Shown here: positions 1,971-36,035 of the stretch, in pieces
Layout: each line of letters begins with the position of its first letter
Numbering within the stretch: position 1 is the first letter of the stretch
From: Escherichia coli
Lineage (GTDB): Bacteria > Pseudomonadota > Gammaproteobacteria > Enterobacterales > Enterobacteriaceae
Strand: one strand, 5' to 3'
DNA length: 64,000 nucleotides
Assembly: GCF_965641715.1 (NCBI RefSeq)
Contig: NZ_OZ282454.1
The notes under the pieces: model-generated
Databases searched by the model: none
Told to the model about the DNA's origin: nothing
The model's input: the letters and a program-made list of their open reading frames with translations, nothing else
Program-made: the position numbers and the translations under genes

Positions 1971-3779
1971 TTACTGTCCTGCCTGTTTCAGCTGGTCAGC
2001 AATCTGCTCTTTCACTTTCTGCGTCAGAACACCACTGTCCGGGATTTTCTGGTTATTCATCAGGTCTTCGTAGAAGTTAGTGAAATCCAGTCTGTCGAAC
2101 TGAATTTTCTGCAGCTCATCAACCGTAATCCCCCGACAGTCAGGATGTTTCGCACTGCCAAAACTGATACGCAGCTGTCCGTTGCGCCCCTGCTGCTGGA
2201 CTATCTGCGCCAGCTTCGAATCAAACTGACAGTAACTGCGTTTTTTCTCCAGGCAGACACCCAGCACTTTCTTCGAACAGAACTCTCCGACACTGACGGT
2301 CAGTTTGTTTGATTTTGCTTTAGCCAGGGCCTTTTCATCACTGCTGCATTTGGCCAGCCCGATATCCTGTCCCCAGCCGCTGTCCTTACAGCAGTTGCTG
2401 TATCCGGCTGCAGCCTTCTTACAAAATTTCGCCTGACCGGTGAAAGCACGGACATCCACCCCGTTCAGCGCCGCAACATCCTTACCTGCTGCGGCCAGTG
2501 CCGCCAGCTGAGAAACGGCTTCGGCAAAATCATTACTCTGCCCGCTCTGAGCCTTATCACATTCGCCATCGAGACAGAAGACGTCTCCCCCACAGACCAT
2601 CACTTTCCCGGATGTTTTTGACTCACAGGAGTAGGTGGCATATTCATGCAGACAGGCACCTTCTTCGGAGTAAAAGGCGCACTGGTGTGACACCAGGGTA
2701 CAGGCAGGATTGTCGGTGTAGGTCTGACAGGTTCCCTTGTCTGCTGACTGCGTGACATACGTGTCCCGGTATGCCCAGCAGCTCTGGTACATGCTGTATG
2801 ACTGACCATCTTTCACCAGCGTCCTGTTCTCGCCAGCCTCCGTACATTCTGTTTTTGTCAGTTTCCCCAGCTCCTTGCTGAACGGGCAGCTTTCAGACCA
2901 GACAACATACGGGGTGTACGAGGCTTTTTTTACCCTGACAACCAGACGCAGCTTCATTGCCGTATGACGTCTGAATTTTGTATTCCCGACCCGGACGGGG
3001 TGAGATGACGTAAAAGCAACACCGGCAGTCAGTGTTTTCTGTACTGGTGTAAATGAGGCATCTGCTGAGTATTTGGCATTCCAGCTCAGTGGGGTTCCCA
3101 GTACTGTAATTGTCATAGGTACACTCTTCTGCAGGTAAGTACGACTCCAGCTGTAATGCGCATCGACAATTTCACCGGTAACGGGAGAGGTAATGGAGAC
3201 AACATACTGACCATTCACTTCACGTGCAGGTAGCTGACTCATTTCATACTCCAGCGTCCGGGTTTCCCATGTGGTACTCCCCTGCAGCTCCATACGGGCA
3301 GTTCGTGTGCAGTACTGCTCCACCTGTAAATCCCTCTCACAGGAGTAATTCGTGTATTCACTCCGGCTAATCTCCTGCGCACTGCACTGCTGCCCGGTGT
3401 TTCCCACAATGCTGTCAGCCCGGTTCACCACATCCCTGCCGGTCTGGATAAACGGTGCATCCGGTGAAAGAATGTCTTTCGGCTTGTTCATGAATGACTC
3501 TGTGATGGTTTTTCCGGTTTCACCGGTCGCCCATTCCGTGGTGCCGTCATTTTTCAGGCCACCATCCCCGCCGGCAGTCACGCCACCGTAATATTTTGTC
3601 TCGTCCGGATTCGCGTTATAGCCGGGGATACTCTCCTGTGGCTTAAAGCCCTGAATACTGCTGCTTCCCTGTCCTTTGATCTGGTGAGCAAAATCAGAGC
3701 CGGCCCGGTAATCACTGTTGCTGTCAGCCTGTGCCATGCCGGCAACCAGAGCCAGTATCAGAGGTAAAATACGTTTCAT
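1971..3779 (-). CDS. traN: TraN mating-pair stabilization outer-membrane protein
   Basis: 602 aa Cys-rich ORF with signal peptide; length and position match F TraN. Confidence 0.92.
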   Translation of the reverse strand: MKRILPLILALVAGMAQADSNSDYRAGSDFAHQIKGQGSSSIQGFKPQESIPGYNANPDETKYYGGVTAGGDGGLKNDGTTEWATGETGKTITESFMNKPKDILSPDAPFIQTGRDVVNRADSIVGNTGQQCSAQEISRSEYTNYSCERDLQVEQYCTRTARMELQGSTTWETRTLEYEMSQLPAREVNGQYVVSITSPVTGEIVDAHYSWSRTYLQKSVPMTITVLGTPLSWNAKYSADASFTPVQKTLTAGVAFTSSHPVRVGNTKFRRHTAMKLRLVVRVKKASYTPYVVWSESCPFSKELGKLTKTECTEAGENRTLVKDGQSYSMYQSCWAYRDTYVTQSADKGTCQTYTDNPACTLVSHQCAFYSEEGACLHEYATYSCESKTSGKVMVCGGDVFCLDGECDKAQSGQSNDFAEAVSQLAALAAAGKDVAALNGVDVRAFTGQAKFCKKAAAGYSNCCKDSGWGQDIGLAKCSSDEKALAKAKSNKLTVSVGEFCSKKVLGVCLEKKRSYCQFDSKLAQIVQQQGRNGQLRISFGSAKHPDCRGITVDELQKIQFDRLDFTNFYEDLMNNQKIPDSGVLTQKVKEQIADQLKQAGQ

Positions 3780-4417
3780 TTCCCGGAATCTCCTTTCCCT
3801 GCCAGTAAATCATGAGCCACCTGCCGGCAGTCACCCGTGGCGGCCACTTTCTCCAGCGCCTGGCCGACCCGCAGGTTTCCCCGGATGATGTCGTATCCCT
3901 GACTGCAGAACACCACCAGTGCCGGTACACTGCGAATGCCGTACTGTGAAAACAGCGTCGGGTCGATCTGAACACCATCAGTCGCGCCGTCTTTCACCAA
4001 GGACAGCACGGCTTCAGCGGTGGTCTTCAGGTCATTGTTCACCATGCCCCGCAGTGTGGCGGGTATACCGTAGTGCCGGGTTTCGCCCAGCATTCGTTTC
4101 AGCCCCTCTTCGGGAATGGAAAACGACACAAAATACAGAGCACCCTGCCGGGGTTTCCCGTCCTGCGAAGCCTGCTGTTTACGAACCAGCTCATCCAGGA
4201 AATGGTTATCTGAACGCTGAAGGGGGTTTTCCAGCACCTGTTTCCCCGCCCAGGCTTTCAGCTGATGGTCAGGTTTTTCACGCAGTTGTCTGCTTAAATT
4301 TTCCTGCTGCTTCAGGAACTGGCGGTTTTCAGGAGTGTTCACGTTTTCTGACGCCATAACCGCCCCGTTCAGCATCATCAGCAGTGCTGCCAGAGATTTC
4401 ATACTCAGCTTCATCAT
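3776..4417 (-). CDS. trbC: TrbC pilus assembly protein
   Basis: 213 aa ORF with signal peptide; operon position. Confidence 0.88.
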   Translation of the reverse strand: MMKLSMKSLAALLMMLNGAVMASENVNTPENRQFLKQQENLSRQLREKPDHQLKAWAGKQVLENPLQRSDNHFLDELVRKQQASQDGKPRQGALYFVSFSIPEEGLKRMLGETRHYGIPATLRGMVNNDLKTTAEAVLSLVKDGATDGVQIDPTLFSQYGIRSVPALVVFCSQGYDIIRGNLRVGQALEKVAATGDCRQVAHDLLAGKGDSGK

Positions 4418-5415: not shown

Positions 5416-6044
5416 TTTCTGCCCTCCTCTGCCGGAATAAATTCCACCTTCAGGAAGCGATCGCCGGGAACGGCGCTCACCCGTGCCGGGACCTGATCAA
5501 TGCCGAGGCGCTGGCAGAGCACACCGTTCTGGTCAAAGTAAACACGGCTGTCCAGAGACTTCTGCATCTCCGGGATACTGCCCTGCACGAGGATAATTTT
5601 GCTCTCCAGTGTGGGCGGCGTCTGGCGTTTCATCCAGGCCACCTGCGCCGGATCATCGCCATTGATGAAATACAGCGTCTGGTTAAAAGGAACATACTGC
5701 AGCGGATTCATCACTTCACCCTGACGGGCAAACACCCGCCCTTCGTTATCCCGGATATCCGCAGCCAGTCTGACGGACGGGTCAAACAACCGGCTACCGT
5801 ATTTCTCCGTGCGTCCGATACCGGGCACGGCAGGGGGCCGCAGACTGTTGCGGATCACCCGCTCCTTAAAGGCATCCATTTTCCGGCCCATCTCACCGGA
5901 CTGCTCCAGTGCCGTCAGGCGCTGCATGATCACCGTCAGCATGTCCGGCTCCTTTACCGGCCACAGATCGCCCCAGGTACCAAGATCGGCGGCGGCCACA
6001 CTCTGCCCCCATATCAGCAGGGCAATCAGCCCCCGGCATCTCAT
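5412..6044 (-). CDS. traW: TraW pilus assembly protein
   Basis: start placed at internal Met (MRCRGLIALL) for 210 aa as in F TraW; signal peptide. Confidence 0.85.
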   Translation of the reverse strand: MRCRGLIALLIWGQSVAAADLGTWGDLWPVKEPDMLTVIMQRLTALEQSGEMGRKMDAFKERVIRNSLRPPAVPGIGRTEKYGSRLFDPSVRLAADIRDNEGRVFARQGEVMNPLQYVPFNQTLYFINGDDPAQVAWMKRQTPPTLESKIILVQGSIPEMQKSLDSRVYFDQNGVLCQRLGIDQVPARVSAVPGDRFLKVEFIPAEEGRK

Positions 6045-18492: not shown

Positions 18493-18665
18493 CTTTACTT
18501 ATATTATCATGACTTCCACTCCCTGAACTGTTCGGCAATCATCCATAATGCTTTGTTGATTCGGATATCACCGTCAATGCCTGTAATTGCTCTTGTTCTG
18601 GTATTTTTACCGGAGGCACTTCGCCCCGATAATCCACCTTTTATCATATTCTCCTGAACCCGCTG

Positions 18666-19328
18666 CTAGGTTGTCCAGAGATCGTTCTGTTTATCCTCCC
18701 AACGGCGGGGAGTAATTATTTGTTCAGGCGTCACTGGCGTTTTATTTTCATCTTCATACCTGACCATCAATGCAGCTCTGCCAAATAAATATTGTTCGTC
18801 ACTGTTAAGATGTATCCCTTTCATTGTCTCCATATTTTCAGTGACTTTATCAAAGACACCGGGCACTTCATACGCTCCCTCAATAACCTGCCCGACAATA
18901 TCACCTTTATGTGGAACGCGGATTTCGCCAAAATTATTCCCGCACACCAGGCCATTTGTGTAGACAAAACGAAAAATTCCTGGGATCATCTGATAACTGG
19001 ATGAACCATCATGTGAATTAAGCAGGGTAATTTCAGGAACTTCTTTCCCGTTAATATGCCCTTCCCTGCGAAGACGTAACATATGTTTACTGTATTCGCG
19101 GCGTCCCAAATCACGAACCCGACTCTGACAGGCAAAGAACGGCTGGAAACCTTCATCACGTAACTTATTGATGATATTGATGGTTGGGATATATGTATAA
19201 CGCTCACTCCGGGATTCATGTTTATCACCAGAAAAAACAGATGGAACAAACTGCATTAATTCGTCATCCGTTAACGGGCGCTCACGGCGAATAGAATTAT
19301 ATCGACCAAAACGGGAAGCTAATCGCAT
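18666..19328 (-). CDS. hypothetical leading-region protein (possibly DUF932-like)
   Basis: 220 aa ORF; family assignment from memory only. Confidence 0.55.
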   Translation of the reverse strand: MRLASRFGRYNSIRRERPLTDDELMQFVPSVFSGDKHESRSERYTYIPTINIINKLRDEGFQPFFACQSRVRDLGRREYSKHMLRLRREGHINGKEVPEITLLNSHDGSSSYQMIPGIFRFVYTNGLVCGNNFGEIRVPHKGDIVGQVIEGAYEVPGVFDKVTENMETMKGIHLNSDEQYLFGRAALMVRYEDENKTPVTPEQIITPRRWEDKQNDLWTT

Positions 19329-20385: not shown

Positions 20386-20547
20386 CTACTTACCGCCGGA
20401 TTCGTAAGCCATGCTTGCCGTAACCTCCCTGTATCCGTCCTTCAGCCGTATTTCGCACAGACGATTCCGGGTCAGGAGTGTGAATATCAACAACGTGCAG
20501 CACACGATTAATACGCACCAGATAAGGGCGTTTCCCGGTAGTTTCAT
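20386..20547 (-). CDS. hok: Hok/Gef family toxin (FlmA/Hok-like)
   Basis: hand translation [53 protein letters not shown] (53 aa); not in supplied ORF track (under 60 aa). Confidence 0.85.
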
Positions 20548-20605
20548 GGTTTACTCCTCCTTGCAATTTGCACGGTAAGAGGCCATACTGACGTGGACTA
20601 GACAT
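20390..20605 (-). CDS. mok: Mok-like overlapping reading frame
   Basis: 71 aa ORF overlapping hok in a different frame, as in hok/mok/sok loci. Confidence 0.55.
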
Positions 20606-21064
20606 GCAAAGGCCTCGTGGGTTAATGAAAATTAACTACGGGGCTTTTGTCCTTCTGCCACACGACAGGATAACAAACCACCTTCACGTCATGAGGCAGA
20701 AAGCCTCAAGCGCCGGGCACATCATAGCCCATATACCTGCACGCTGACCACATTCACTTTCCCTGAAAATAATCCGGTCGTTCAGCCAGTTCACGGGCAA
20801 TCAGTTCATCCGCAAACAGTGGTGCATGCCTGTTGATACGTTTCTCCAGATTCCGCCGTCGTACCACAGCCTTACGTTCTTCGCTCCAGCGGCGCACCTA
20901 GCGGTCAGAAATAAAATCCAGACAGACCGCATACCCTGCACCGGCAACCCAGCGTGACATAACGGATGCCGGTGCAGGCTGCCCCGCCTCCACCACTTCT
21001 GAAACCAGTTCATGCTCGCCAGGACAGGGAGAAGGCAGTTTCCAGCGCAATGAGTAACGCCACT

Positions 21065-21784
21065 TCACGCCGCCTCCCGGAGTTTGTTCGGCACCATCCA
21101 CCGCTCCATCTCACGGACAGCGTGACCGGCCTCTCTTGCTGCAAGACTGGCTTCCGCAATAACCTGCCAGAACGGCATATTCTGCCACTGCCAGCGTTCC
21201 ATTCCGGACAGTGACGGAAAACGCTCGCCCCACTGCCAGAACAGGGTTTCCAGGTCATGCTCTGCCACCCGGTCACTCCAGCGTGCATGCCAGCTTCCGA
21301 CTGTTTCCGGCGAATGGAATGCCAGTTCGATTTCAGCCTGAGCGACCAGCGCCTGGTACGCACGGGCTTTCTGCTCTGCCTCCCGTGCCTGCTGGCGGCT
21401 GTACTTCTGCATGACCAGCGCGGATTTATGGCGACTTCGCTCCCTGACACGAAACCGCACCGACGGAAACACCCCCTCTGCTGCATCACCGGGAAGGGGA
21501 AGGAGGCAGACCTCGCCCTGTGTTTCAATCAGCACATCGATGGCATACAGCCACTGAAGACGGTTGCCGTGCAGTTCTTCTGCGGTCAGGGACGGCATGA
21601 AAAATCGCAGGTCAGACAGCGATATCCTGCGGCTTCCGTTCAGACAGCGGAAAAACGCCCCCGCATACGGATATTCCGCCAGCGTGTTACCCTGATGGCG
21701 GCGTTTTTCTGTCTCCGCCACCGCCCGCCATGCGGCCTGTTGCTCTGTGCTGAGGGGAACCAGTGCCTGTGAACGTGCGCTCAT
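21065..21784 (-). CDS. psiA: PsiA plasmid SOS-inhibition protein A
   Basis: 239 aa, same length as F PsiA; directly downstream of psiB. Confidence 0.9.
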
Positions 21785-22218
21785 ACCTGACCTCCTTCCG
21801 CCATCAGGATATGGATGATGTCGTTAACGCTGTACCCCTGCGTATCCAGTGACGCCGCCAGTGCCAGTGAATGGCTGACTGCTTCCGGTGCAAACCGCCG
21901 CTGCACCTGAACCACCGCAAACGGCTCACCACCGGCATTCACCAGAACCAGCACCCAGACCAGAGAGACATTTCCCGGTGAACATAACGCCAGGTGAAAA
22001 CGTTCGTGGACAGGCGTGAAACGGACCTGGACGGGGAAAAAGCCGCCAAACTCGCTGCCGTACTCGCCGTTCAGCGTCCAATTGTCCGGCGCATCCAGCT
22101 CCCGCATCACGGCGTGTGTCAGCTCACGACGTTCACCACTTCCGGCAGCCCGGATATCCTCATATTCCTGTGCGCTCATGGTCTGTAATACATCCAAGGT
22201 CAGTTCAGTTTTCATCAC
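21781..22218 (-). CDS. psiB: PsiB plasmid SOS-inhibition protein B
   Basis: 145 aa; recalled PsiB sequence ([47 protein letters not shown]...). Confidence 0.92.
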
Positions 22219-22269: not shown

Positions 22270-24228
22270 TCAGGCGGCATCAGCCAGGTTATCGGCGCGT
22301 TCAGTGGCATCCGTCTGTGGACGTGGTGAACCCATCCAGCCAGGCACCCAGCGGTTGTCTTTCATGTGGAACTCTGCATGTTCAGCGGCATCGCCTTTCT
22401 TCATCTTCTCCGCGTCCTGTGCGGCACCGGACAGTCCGGCATCATTCAGGGCTGCGATAATCTGCGGCTTTTTCAGGTGTCCGAAGAAGTTTGCTTTCGT
22501 CGGCTGCCACCAGTCGCGCATGTGAAAGCCGATAGCGGTTTCCAGCGAGTCAAGCGGACTGCGTGACGTGTGACCATACTCACGGGTCTGAACACCGTGG
22601 ATGCTGCATGCGGTGCAGAAACTGAGCAGGGATAACAGCACCTCCTGACTGAGTGACAGGAACGTCGTCATGTTCCGTGCCCCCCCCTCCGGCAGCAGGG
22701 CAGCAAGACGGGCTTTTTCTGCCATCATCGCCATGAATGCGGCACCTTCCTTCCCCGATGGCGCATCGCTGGTCAGCGAATAATGTTTACATTCCAGGCT
22801 GATTTGTGCTGGTTTACTGTACGCTCCGCTGCCAAACACATTCAGACAGAGCGTCCATGCCAGCAGTGCCAGAGATTTGTCCGGCTGTTGCATCAGCGCC
22901 GCCTGGACTGCCAGCGTGCGCTCTGAAGACATTTTCGTCAGCAGTGGCAGACTGATTTCCTCCACTGACGCTTTCTCCTGCACCTGTTCCGTGCGGTCAG
23001 CGTCGGCAGCCGCGTCATCCTCGCTGCGCAACTGCACACCACGCTGGACACATACGTTGCCATAACGCCAGGACACCACCACACCGCTTCCGGCACGCAT
23101 CTCCGGCGTCCACGCCATGACCTTCGCCATGCAGTCAATCAGCTTCATTTCAGCTTCCAGCAGGTCGGATTCCTCACAGTGGTTTTCCAGCGCGTCGTAA
23201 CGTGCCATCAGTTCGTTCAGGCGTTCTTCTTCCGCCTCGGTCAGCACCGCTTCCGGCTCCGGCAGACAACGGTATGTTCCGGCATCCTCACGGCAGAAAC
23301 CGACAGGCTCCATACGTCCGGCGCACCATTCCCAGCCTTCAGCTTCCCGAAGGTGTTCAGCGACAGCCTGGAGTTTTTCCAGCAGGGCTGCATCGAGCGC
23401 AACACAGTCCACATAGCCACCCTCGTCGTCGCTGAACAAATCGGTGCGCAGTTCGTCTGGCGAGAAGGCATCAGCCCCCACGAAGCGGAATTTACTGTTC
23501 CCCGCCACCGCCACTTCACTTTCGGTCACCAGACGACGAATGGTCTGCACTTCCGGTTTTCCACCCCATCCCGACTGACAGGCAGCTTCAAACACCTGCA
23601 CCTGACGCGCGGTGTCGTTCTCCAGCGCCAGCGCCTGACAGTGCTCTGTGGTGATGCGGTCTTCTGCCAGCGCACCGAGGATGACTGGTGCAAGGTCTGC
23701 CAGTTTCAGCATTCGCTGAACGTGGCGGGGTGAATAGCCCAGCAAATCACCGATTTGTGCAGGTGTTTTGCCTTCCTGCGCCATTGCGCGGAATCCGGCA
23801 ATCTGTTCGGCAGGGTGCATATCCCGACGCTGACCGTTCTCGGTCAGCGATGCAGCCGTCGCCAGTTCCTGCGGGATAACCTTCACGCGGACAGGCCAGT
23901 CCGCCGGAATGATTCCACGCTCTGCCAGCATATTGAGTGCTGCCAGTCTGCGACCACCTGCGGCGACACCGTGGCGGTCACCTGGCAGGGCATGCACGAC
24001 CAGATTCTGCAGCAGGCCGACGCCTTTAATGGACTCCGCCAGTTCGCTGACTGACTCCGCAGAATACGGCACCGTGCGCACATTCAGTGGTGATTTAATC
24101 AGTGAGGCCAGCGGCACGCTCACTTCCGCCGTCTGCGCCAGCAGGGCTGACAGGGCAGTCTCCTGCTCTTTTGACGGTTTACGGCTGGATTTACGCTCCG
24201 TTTTTGTCTTAGACTCTGTAACTGACAT
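22270..24228 (-). CDS. ParB/Srx-like nuclease-domain protein (F Orf652/YubM type)
   Basis: 652 aa; N-terminal ParB-like region; conserved leading-region position upstream of psiB. Confidence 0.85.
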   Translation of the reverse strand: MSVTESKTKTERKSSRKPSKEQETALSALLAQTAEVSVPLASLIKSPLNVRTVPYSAESVSELAESIKGVGLLQNLVVHALPGDRHGVAAGGRRLAALNMLAERGIIPADWPVRVKVIPQELATAASLTENGQRRDMHPAEQIAGFRAMAQEGKTPAQIGDLLGYSPRHVQRMLKLADLAPVILGALAEDRITTEHCQALALENDTARQVQVFEAACQSGWGGKPEVQTIRRLVTESEVAVAGNSKFRFVGADAFSPDELRTDLFSDDEGGYVDCVALDAALLEKLQAVAEHLREAEGWEWCAGRMEPVGFCREDAGTYRCLPEPEAVLTEAEEERLNELMARYDALENHCEESDLLEAEMKLIDCMAKVMAWTPEMRAGSGVVVSWRYGNVCVQRGVQLRSEDDAAADADRTEQVQEKASVEEISLPLLTKMSSERTLAVQAALMQQPDKSLALLAWTLCLNVFGSGAYSKPAQISLECKHYSLTSDAPSGKEGAAFMAMMAEKARLAALLPEGGARNMTTFLSLSQEVLLSLLSFCTACSIHGVQTREYGHTSRSPLDSLETAIGFHMRDWWQPTKANFFGHLKKPQIIAALNDAGLSGAAQDAEKMKKGDAAEHAEFHMKDNRWVPGWMGSPRPQTDATERADNLADAA

Positions 24229-25140: not shown

Positions 25141-25770
25141 TTCAGCCCCCATCATCTGTTGAGTTTCGGGAGCCGCGGTTTTGACGTTTTGCGGGGACCT
25201 GCCTTTTGTTCCCTCCGGTATTCACCATCACCTGTTTGAGAACCTTCGCCGCAAGGGGCATCACTGCCACGGCCGGAAACGACTGTCCGGGGGCAGACCG
25301 CAAAAGTTTTTGCCGGCTTTTGGGCAAAAACTTTTGTGGGATGTGCATTTCACCCCTGGACTGACGGAGACGGTTGTGGCTGTCTTTGCCCCCGGCGACA
25401 GGGGTTCAAACAGGTGCAGGGCACCGGACACAACAACGGGCAGGCACCCGCCGCAACGACGTGAAGCGCGGTTTGCGAAACGGCGTTGCCCTCACATCCC
25501 GGCGGCCTTTTGCCGGGATGCCAGGAGCGCAGGCCACGGCGCGACAGAGGCGGCGCGACCGGAACTGTCGCTGCAAGCCCGGGGTTTTCACGCATCGGAC
25601 CGTAGCGACAGCCCGAAACCGCGCCAGCGGGTTCGGCGGAGACTGGCAGGTGCGCCAGCAGCTGCCTGTCGGAGTCGGGCCTGACGACCGGATGCCGCCA
25701 GGCAGCCGGGAGCCGAAGGTGCGCCCGGCATACAGGACAACACTGCTGTAGTCAGAATCAGAGCAGCAGG
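25141..25770. repeat. Frpo/ssi-like leading-region repeat, copy B (full length, about 630 bp)
   Basis: GC-rich, hairpin-rich; directly upstream of ssb in transcription sense. Confidence 0.7.
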
Positions 25771-35200: not shown

Positions 35201-35408
35201 TCAGAAAAGGGCGACAGGCTGGCGTACACTGTCACCGACGCCAGCCGGAAGTGGTAAAGGCGCCCGTCCCGTGCCCGCCGGACGCGGGACACTGACCACA
35301 GGCAGCGTTTATGCCGCGCCGCGTCAGCCGGCGCAGTAAAAAGAGGAGCACGGCGACATCCTTTACCGGAAAAGAAACGGGCGGTTGCCCGCCCGTCTCC
35401 GTCATACT

Positions 35409-36035
35409 TCATCCGCCATAATGCACCACATTGTCGACTATCCACGCAGGTCCGGTGACTTCCGGCAGCTCATCGTCATCTGTCGGGGAAGACCATTCCA
35501 GTTCCCCCCACAGCACATCAACGAGCTCTCCGCGCTCATACAACTGCCAGCCACAGAAATCACAGCCCTGTTCGGCATACCAGTGCTCCAGCGTGCAGCT
35601 GAAACGGCGGCTTAATTCTGCAATAACGTCGCTTTCCGGCTGACACCACGGAGTGTCGAAATCAACCTGAATGAAGTTGTCTCCCTGACTACTGATATTC
35701 ACCTCATACCCCACAGGCCACTTCACGCCATACCGTTCCGTATACCAGTGATATGCAGAAGGAACACCGTTCAGAACACCACCGTTAAAGCCATTCACTT
35801 CAACATCCAGGCGGGTCGGCAGAACCGTCAGCAGGTCAAACGGCATGGTATTTTCCGGCAGTACGTTGTCACACAGACGGTTCCACCACACCGATACATC
35901 CTCGTTACTCCAGAAGCCACACCAGTCACCTCTTTTTGCGGTGAAAAGTGCGGTGATGGTATCCCTGACATCGTCCGGTAATCCTTCCCAGCGACGCTGT
36001 CCAGTACCGCTCTGCAGCCAGAGTTCATGCAGCAT
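35409..36035 (-). CDS. hypothetical acidic Trp/Cys-rich protein
   Basis: ORF 35409-36302; start placed at internal Met (MLHELW...) because upstream part overlaps umuD-like remnant on opposite strand; hairpin terminator after stop. Confidence 0.4.
   Translation of the reverse strand: MLHELWLQSGTGQRRWEGLPDDVRDTITALFTAKRGDWCGFWSNEDVSVWWNRLCDNVLPENTMPFDLLTVLPTRLDVEVNGFNGGVLNGVPSAYHWYTERYGVKWPVGYEVNISSQGDNFIQVDFDTPWCQPESDVIAELSRRFSCTLEHWYAEQGCDFCGWQLYERGELVDVLWGELEWSSPTDDDELPEVTGPAWIVDNVVHYGG

Follow-up and report, generated by a model that had tools for sequence, protein, structure and literature searches.

A pseudogene of a conserved small gene downstream of psiA in an F-type plasmid leading region, very probably disrupted at a Dcm site

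Organization of the leading region and of the interrupted frame

The window analyzed here, a stretch of Escherichia coli DNA of 64,000 nt, contains the leading region of an F-type plasmid, whose genes run along the minus strand. Followed in that direction, it comprises a ParB-like gene (22270-24228, minus strand), psiB, psiA, the interval that is the subject of this work, the hok/mok locus, a 98-aa ORF, a DUF932 gene, an SLT transglycosylase gene, oriT and traM. Both psi genes are intact: psiB (21781-22215, minus strand) would be the first gene of a psiB-psiA-pseudogene unit, and psiA (21065-21784, minus strand), which encodes an SOS inhibitor of 239 aa, lies directly upstream of the pseudogene. 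The window is 100% identical in both stretches compared (601 and 921 nt) to pRHB38-C15_2 (CP057088.1), an IncFIA/FIB plasmid of E. coli from UK pig faeces. A 68-aa fragment annotated as "single-stranded DNA-binding protein" is located just 5′ of the full ssb gene, at 25141-25347 (minus strand) in the window and at 53256-53462 in CP057088.1, and a similar ssb fragment is found 5′ of a ygeA-like ORF in other plasmids (3936-4142 in two relatives, one of them CP058103.1). These short ssb fragments may be a reflection of the duplicated Frpo1/Frpo2 regions described for F.

The interval between psiA and hok is occupied by a pseudogene (20754-21068, minus strand) of a conserved small gene that lies 3′ of psiA, matches phrog_27524 and is named "theronine dehydrogenase" (sic) by PGAP, an assignment that draws on its translation, intact alleles, homologues, dN/dS and a RefSeq call. 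Translation of the minus strand from 20754 to 21101 yields, as an earlier note on this DNA had described, a single frame that is interrupted solely by a TAG at 20898-20900 and ends at the TGA at 20754-20756. The ORF start at 21101 and the length of 114 aa proposed in that note have to be revised, the GTG at 21101 being merely the first possible start after the preceding in-frame stop. The homologues point instead to a GTG at 21066-21068 (minus strand), which corresponds to the annotated starts in relatives, overlaps the psiA stop codon TGA (21065-21067) as GTGA and is preceded at a distance of 4 nt by a Shine-Dalgarno-like GGGAGG (21073-21078, minus strand). The corrected gene comprises 104 codons: 56 sense codons, the premature amber as codon 57 (minus strand; CAG or CCG in intact alleles) and a further 47 sense codons, followed by the TGA stop. 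The length previously given for the 47-codon tail stands, with one residue amended: the tail ends in LAERPDYFQGK, where LAERRDYFQGK had been read.

The terminal TGA ends 3 nt before a TGGTCA hexamer (20745-20750) that forms, together with an 18-nt spacer and a TATGAT box, a promoter-like site (20721-20750, minus strand); in view of the 5′ end of the R1 hok mRNA, we take this site to be the hok promoter. The gene therefore takes up all of the interval between psiA and the hok promoter, its stop codon being 3 nt away from the −35 hexamer. The flm/hok toxin locus is its downstream neighbour (20386-20605, minus strand; mok at 20390-20605, hok at 20386-20547), and the hok/sok leader is marked by a match to the sok family of Rfam (RF01794) at 20545-20715 (minus strand; 98.2 bits, E 1.2e-22). 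The pseudogene lies clear of both the hok mRNA leader and the Sok RNA region. The possibility, named in the earlier note as a refutation, that the region is non-coding hok/sok leader DNA fails on this point, since the sok match falls downstream of the ORF stop at 20754.

The DUF932 gene (18507-19328, minus strand; 273 codons) carries an internal TAG of its own at 18666-18668. Its position and length, taken with what Loh et al. 1989 reportedly described, suggest that it corresponds to orf273/ygeB of F, the gene after ygeA downstream of Frpo1. Couturier et al. 2023 (PMC9849209) were unable to obtain an F derivative with ygeB deleted; a nonsense allele occurring in nature, with its stop at codon 221 of 273, therefore deserves attention. 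The frame downstream of psiA had previously been counted as the third in-frame-stop ORF, and the DUF932 gene is clearly one of the other two; our scan of ORF pairs was too noisy to name the remaining one. In that scan, well over a hundred places in the window showed one stop codon dividing two runs of 45 or more open codons. With this pattern so common, the sequence alone could not decide whether a gene is present at all.

Intact alleles and the protein family

We accept the psiA-downstream gene as real because intact, conserved homologues span the junction created by the TAG. WP_000872086.1, a 104-aa hypothetical protein encoded by NZ_CP093550.1 (94.8% identical to the window over the 601-nt query region), reads through the TAG position with Pro (CCG) at codon 57, and its gene presents 7 nt differences from the window copy over 315 nt. 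The closest intact alleles are those of CP058065.1 (QMQ78315.1) and NZ_AP027489.1, which encode Gln (CAG) at codon 57 and present 4 differences over the 315 nt, the window DNA being 98.7% identical to them. The intact psiA-downstream genes (WP_000872086.1, QMQ78315.1) are thus akin to the window copy in nucleotide sequence (96-99% identity), in their length of 315 nt, in the GTGA overlap and in ending just before the hok promoter, but they have CAG or CCG at codon 57 where the window copy has TAG.

A family search with WP_000872086.1 identified 224 proteins at E <= 0.001, mostly of 104-108 aa, with a best E of 7.6e-65 at 100% coverage. The best 120 of these 224 were listed, and the hosts among the matches listed include E. 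coli, Salmonella, Klebsiella, Enterobacter, Citrobacter, Cedecea and Atlantibacter, with the genes located on plasmid-sized contigs. A profile search against 1.84 billion cluster representatives yielded 394 relatives at E <= 1e-3, and the intact protein matches phrog_27524 across residues 2-104 (E 4.8e-23). An alignment of 30 family members contains 23 invariant columns and protein-like conservative substitutions, position 57 being occupied by Q or P. Pairwise Nei-Gojobori comparisons among the E. coli, Atlantibacter, Klebsiella and Salmonella copies return dN/dS values of 0.09-0.20 with saturated dS, and the family is under strong purifying selection overall.

The genomic context is conserved as well. 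The gene order ssb-DUF905-parB-psiB-psiA-gene-hok is kept in Atlantibacter-type, Klebsiella and Salmonella contigs, and in all of these the start of the gene and the stop of psiA overlap by 4 nt (psiA end at 4004, gene start at 4001), as ATGA in distant homologues and as GTGA in the window. A Shine-Dalgarno-like motif is present 5′ of the start in every copy checked, with GGAG at the equivalent position in distant homologues. With these data, the conserved homologue whose presence across the junction the earlier note had proposed as a check has been found, in the form of intact 104-aa proteins in several plasmids. These homologues, the dN/dS values and the RefSeq pseudogene call described below all support the proposal that a nonsense codon is the sole lesion in a genuine gene.

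Relatives also occur outside this context. On a plasmid-like contig, a distant relative (4001-4351) lies directly after an orphan C5 DNA methylase gene, with a kleA/kleC-like gene further upstream, and further distant phrog_27524 relatives are located amid early-region-like phage genes, at 3153-3755 of a phage-like contig and at 35312-35647 of Rhodobacter phage RcapNL. The range of the phrog_27524 family suggests a small mobile-element protein that is not confined to psiA operons.

Scanned against Pfam and NCBIfam, the intact protein had no match even at E <= 10, and nothing was obtained from a Pfam scan of ten distant, longer family members, from PADLOC, or from sequence and fold searches of the PDB. 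The AlphaFold2 model of the intact protein (mean pLDDT 89) predicts strands at residues 2-9, 20-27 and 46-53 and helices at 63-81, 83-96 and 98-102, separated by a linker (residues 51-60, pLDDT 73) that is the stretch of lowest confidence and contains the TAG position. Threonine dehydrogenases, in contrast, possess ADH/SDR domains with a nucleotide-binding fold and span ~250-350 aa, whereas the protein encoded downstream of psiA has 104 aa, modelled as a three-stranded sheet and three helices. Because a protein of 104 aa without a Pfam, NCBIfam or PDB match has a predicted fold unlike that of a dehydrogenase, the misspelt and propagated PGAP name "theronine dehydrogenase" is a misnomer. A literature search for this term did not find it in any paper of the library searched, and the papers on leading regions found there make no mention of a gene between psiA and hok/flm.

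Full-length similarity and a position 3′ of psiA with the 4-nt overlap place the window copy within this family, but its frame of ~104-108 codons is not uninterrupted, with a TAG at codon 57. The window copy is hence a pseudogene of the family and not a functional member.

Origin and spread of the amber codon

In the nearest intact alleles, the CAG of codon 57 sits in GCCAGGTG, the ancestral context being CCGCCAGGT, where the window has CTAGG. In codons, CP058065.1 and NZ_AP027489.1 read GAC CGC CAG GTG versus GAC CGC TAG GTG in the window, and over a longer stretch GACCGCCAGGTG versus GACCGCTAGGTG. The mutated site (20897-20901) is CTAGG on the minus strand and CCTAG on the plus strand, against CCAGG in intact relatives, and the changed base, at 20900, is the inner C of a CCWGG motif. 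When tested for a Dcm-site mutation, the substitution proved to be a C-to-T change at precisely this base. The inner C of CCWGG is the position methylated by Dcm, most E. coli strains are dcm+, and C-to-T changes there (CAG to TAG, TGG to TAG) are the classical signature of 5-methylcytosine deamination escaping very-short-patch repair. Amber hotspots at Dcm sites were reportedly described in lacI by Coulondre, Miller, Farabaugh and Gilbert in 1978. The change in the window resembles those hotspots in its CCAGG ancestor, its inner C-to-T transition and its conversion of CAG to TAG, with the DUF932 gene providing the opposite-strand case (TGG to TAG), but differs from them in that it is reconstructed solely from natural plasmid alleles and not measured.

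The DUF932 stop follows the same pattern. Intact relatives read ACC TGG CAG, and CCTGG has become CCTAG through the same transition on the opposite strand; two of these relatives, one of them CP058103.1, read AACCTGGCAG versus AACCTAGCAG in the window. Deamination at Dcm sites would explain why both stops are amber codons. A third lineage-specific C-to-T change at a Dcm inner C is located in psiB, at 22197 (minus strand), where ACC CTG GAC has become ACC TTG GAC, a synonymous change in Leu; this base is C in all five comparator plasmids. Region-wide, 2 of the 62 lineage-specific differences are Dcm-site changes against about 0.5 expected (32 target positions in 3785 nt), and many of the 62 are clustered like recombination tracts; the excess is modest and only suggestive, and our argument does not depend on it. 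Among the alleles compared, none of the intact ones departs from the window copy at codon 57 alone; since the nearest differ at three further positions, it is by parsimony that we take CAG to be the immediate ancestor. As judged from these allele comparisons, deamination of 5-methylcytosine at the Dcm site is the most likely cause of the TAG.

The allele is not unique to the window. The identical 315-nt TAG allele is present in three UK pig plasmids and in pPE041_2, a South Korean pig plasmid (E. coli PEC41, NZ_JBXSFL010000003.1) that is 99.92% identical to the UK copy over 7.1 kb, with 5 mismatches and one gap, and in which both TAGs are present. Looked up via its truncated 56-aa and 67-aa products, the identical allele was recovered from 11 further independent assemblies, for a total spread of about 15 independent assemblies from several countries; two loci from the 56-aa look-up end at contig edges and are uninformative on the TAG. 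In pPE041_2, RefSeq annotates AC13O1_RS26280 as a "theronine dehydrogenase" pseudogene with an "internal stop" at the exact psiA-overlapping coordinates, and flags the DUF932 gene with an "internal stop" as well. AC13O1_RS26280 is identical to the window copy over the 315 nt, including the TAG, and likewise has a stopped DUF932 neighbour, but it comes from another isolate, another country and a plasmid of different size, and its annotation is silent on a Dcm-site origin. In the numbering of CP057088.1, one locus tag between psiA and hok has no entry in the protein table, consistent with annotation as a pseudogene. The disrupted state of the gene is, in consequence, already flagged in public annotation.

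Gene loss, alternative readings and significance

At least 5000 plasmid records match the region, but only 311 of them contain all of it, and at least 80% of the gene is found in 256 of 5426 complete E. coli genomes. In classic F (NC_002483.1, interval 5660-5960) and in most F-like plasmids the gene body is gone and ~49 nt of its 3′ end are left by the hok promoter. The psiA-flm (hok) interval of F has the same flanks as that of the window (end of psiA on one side, hok promoter and leader on the other), but its ~49-nt 3′ remnant is degenerate with in-frame stops, whereas the window has a full-length gene with one nonsense codon. As a speculation, the 3′ remnant in such F-like deletion variants may have been retained as upstream promoter context. 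Other disruptions include an independent E24* (G70T) in NZ_CP024291.1 and the same E24* plus a 1-nt deletion in NZ_CP023164.1, and in CP058103.1 the psiA-hok slot (2420-2938) holds an unrelated 172-aa ORF. In E. coli F-like plasmids, repeated loss of the gene has been tolerated because it is dispensable.

Our reading of the locus is that 20754-21068 (minus strand) is very probably a recently inactivated copy of a real and conserved 104-codon gene, dispensable and interrupted by a CAG-to-TAG change at a Dcm site. In the leading regions of some IncF plasmids and of related plasmids from enterobacteria, the intact gene would follow psiB and psiA as the third cistron of their unit, a membership suggested by its position and its coupling to psiA: the GTGA overlap and the GGGAGG motif make it most likely that its translation is coupled to that of psiA. 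If F is a guide, the recipient would express it early, together with the ssb...psiB-psiA genes. A 5-methylcytosine at the inner C of CCAGG would then have been deaminated spontaneously to thymine and have evaded very-short-patch repair, this single C-to-T change turning codon 57 from CAG (Gln) into TAG. Translation would end after 56 residues; going by the structural model, this would leave the three-stranded beta half and remove the C-terminal half (residues about 63-102), which is basic and helical. The truncated 56-residue product is probably non-functional.

It is improbable, in our estimation, that the gene is split but still working, with reinitiation at a GTG or amber readthrough giving rise to two fragments or to some full-length protein. 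A GTG does follow the TAG directly, and a 47-aa ORF is called at 20754-20897, but no Shine-Dalgarno-like sequence precedes this GTG. The TAG falls, according to the model, in the lowest-confidence linker between the two structural halves. Programmed readthrough or suppression finds no support in the window or in the relatives: position 57 is a sense codon (Q or P) in the latter, and ARAGORN found no tRNA in the window, and hence no suppressor tRNA. The allele is widespread without further decay, but this is what would be expected of a young allele, the UK and Korean copies being as close as described above, and other lineages lose the gene by deletion, early nonsense or frameshift, so that selection for its retention is not apparent in the F-like plasmids of E. 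coli. It is likewise a long shot that the amber-split fragments still act together and, more broadly, that Dcm sites constitute recurrent off-switches for dispensable leading-region genes, as the two ambers in this lineage might prompt one to propose.

We consider it very improbable that the TAG is a sequencing or assembly artefact, generated by a nanopore miscall of CCAGG as CTAGG in a hybrid assembly. Nanopore base-calling is known to be error-prone at Dcm-methylated CCWGG motifs, both in-frame TAGs lie exactly at would-be Dcm sites, and three of the complete plasmids with the allele stem from one sequencing project; however, the identical allele is present in the unrelated South Korean assembly and in the 11 further independent assemblies, which are mostly short draft contigs of different projects together with one Logan SRA run, and 136 intact CCWGG sites remain in the window. 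Wholesale sequencing error at Dcm motifs is ruled out by these intact sites and by the recurrence of the allele in independent assemblies. Finally, there is next to no chance that the frame opened fortuitously in non-coding spacer or hok/sok leader without any gene, a reading that could invoke how very often, in a GC-rich window, one stop divides two runs of 45 or more open codons, the lack of Pfam, NCBIfam and PDB matches for the family and the absence of the segment from most F-like plasmids, but that is refuted by the selection and conservation data, namely low dN/dS with saturated synonymous change and a frame, length, psiA-overlapping start and Shine-Dalgarno-like motif kept across genera, and that is further contradicted by homologues in phages and other plasmids, by a confident structure prediction and by a sok match lying outside the ORF.

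The recently inactivated gene that we favour is an ordinary young pseudogene of an uncharacterized accessory gene and matters little in itself. Both premature stops in this leading region are nevertheless C-to-T changes at Dcm sites, and together they illustrate the 5-methylcytosine amber hotspot cleanly in natural DNA. Intact, amber and deleted alleles all occur naturally and could serve as controls in testing the role of the protein in plasmid establishment, and if the split-gene or off-switch reading were true, the CAG, TAG and deletion alleles would be a ready-made test of a psiA-coupled protein during that process. For the F-like plasmids and their relatives at large, catalogues of the leading region should count the gene as the third cistron of the psi operon, one that is conserved, absent from classic F, without a literature and burdened with a misleading name.
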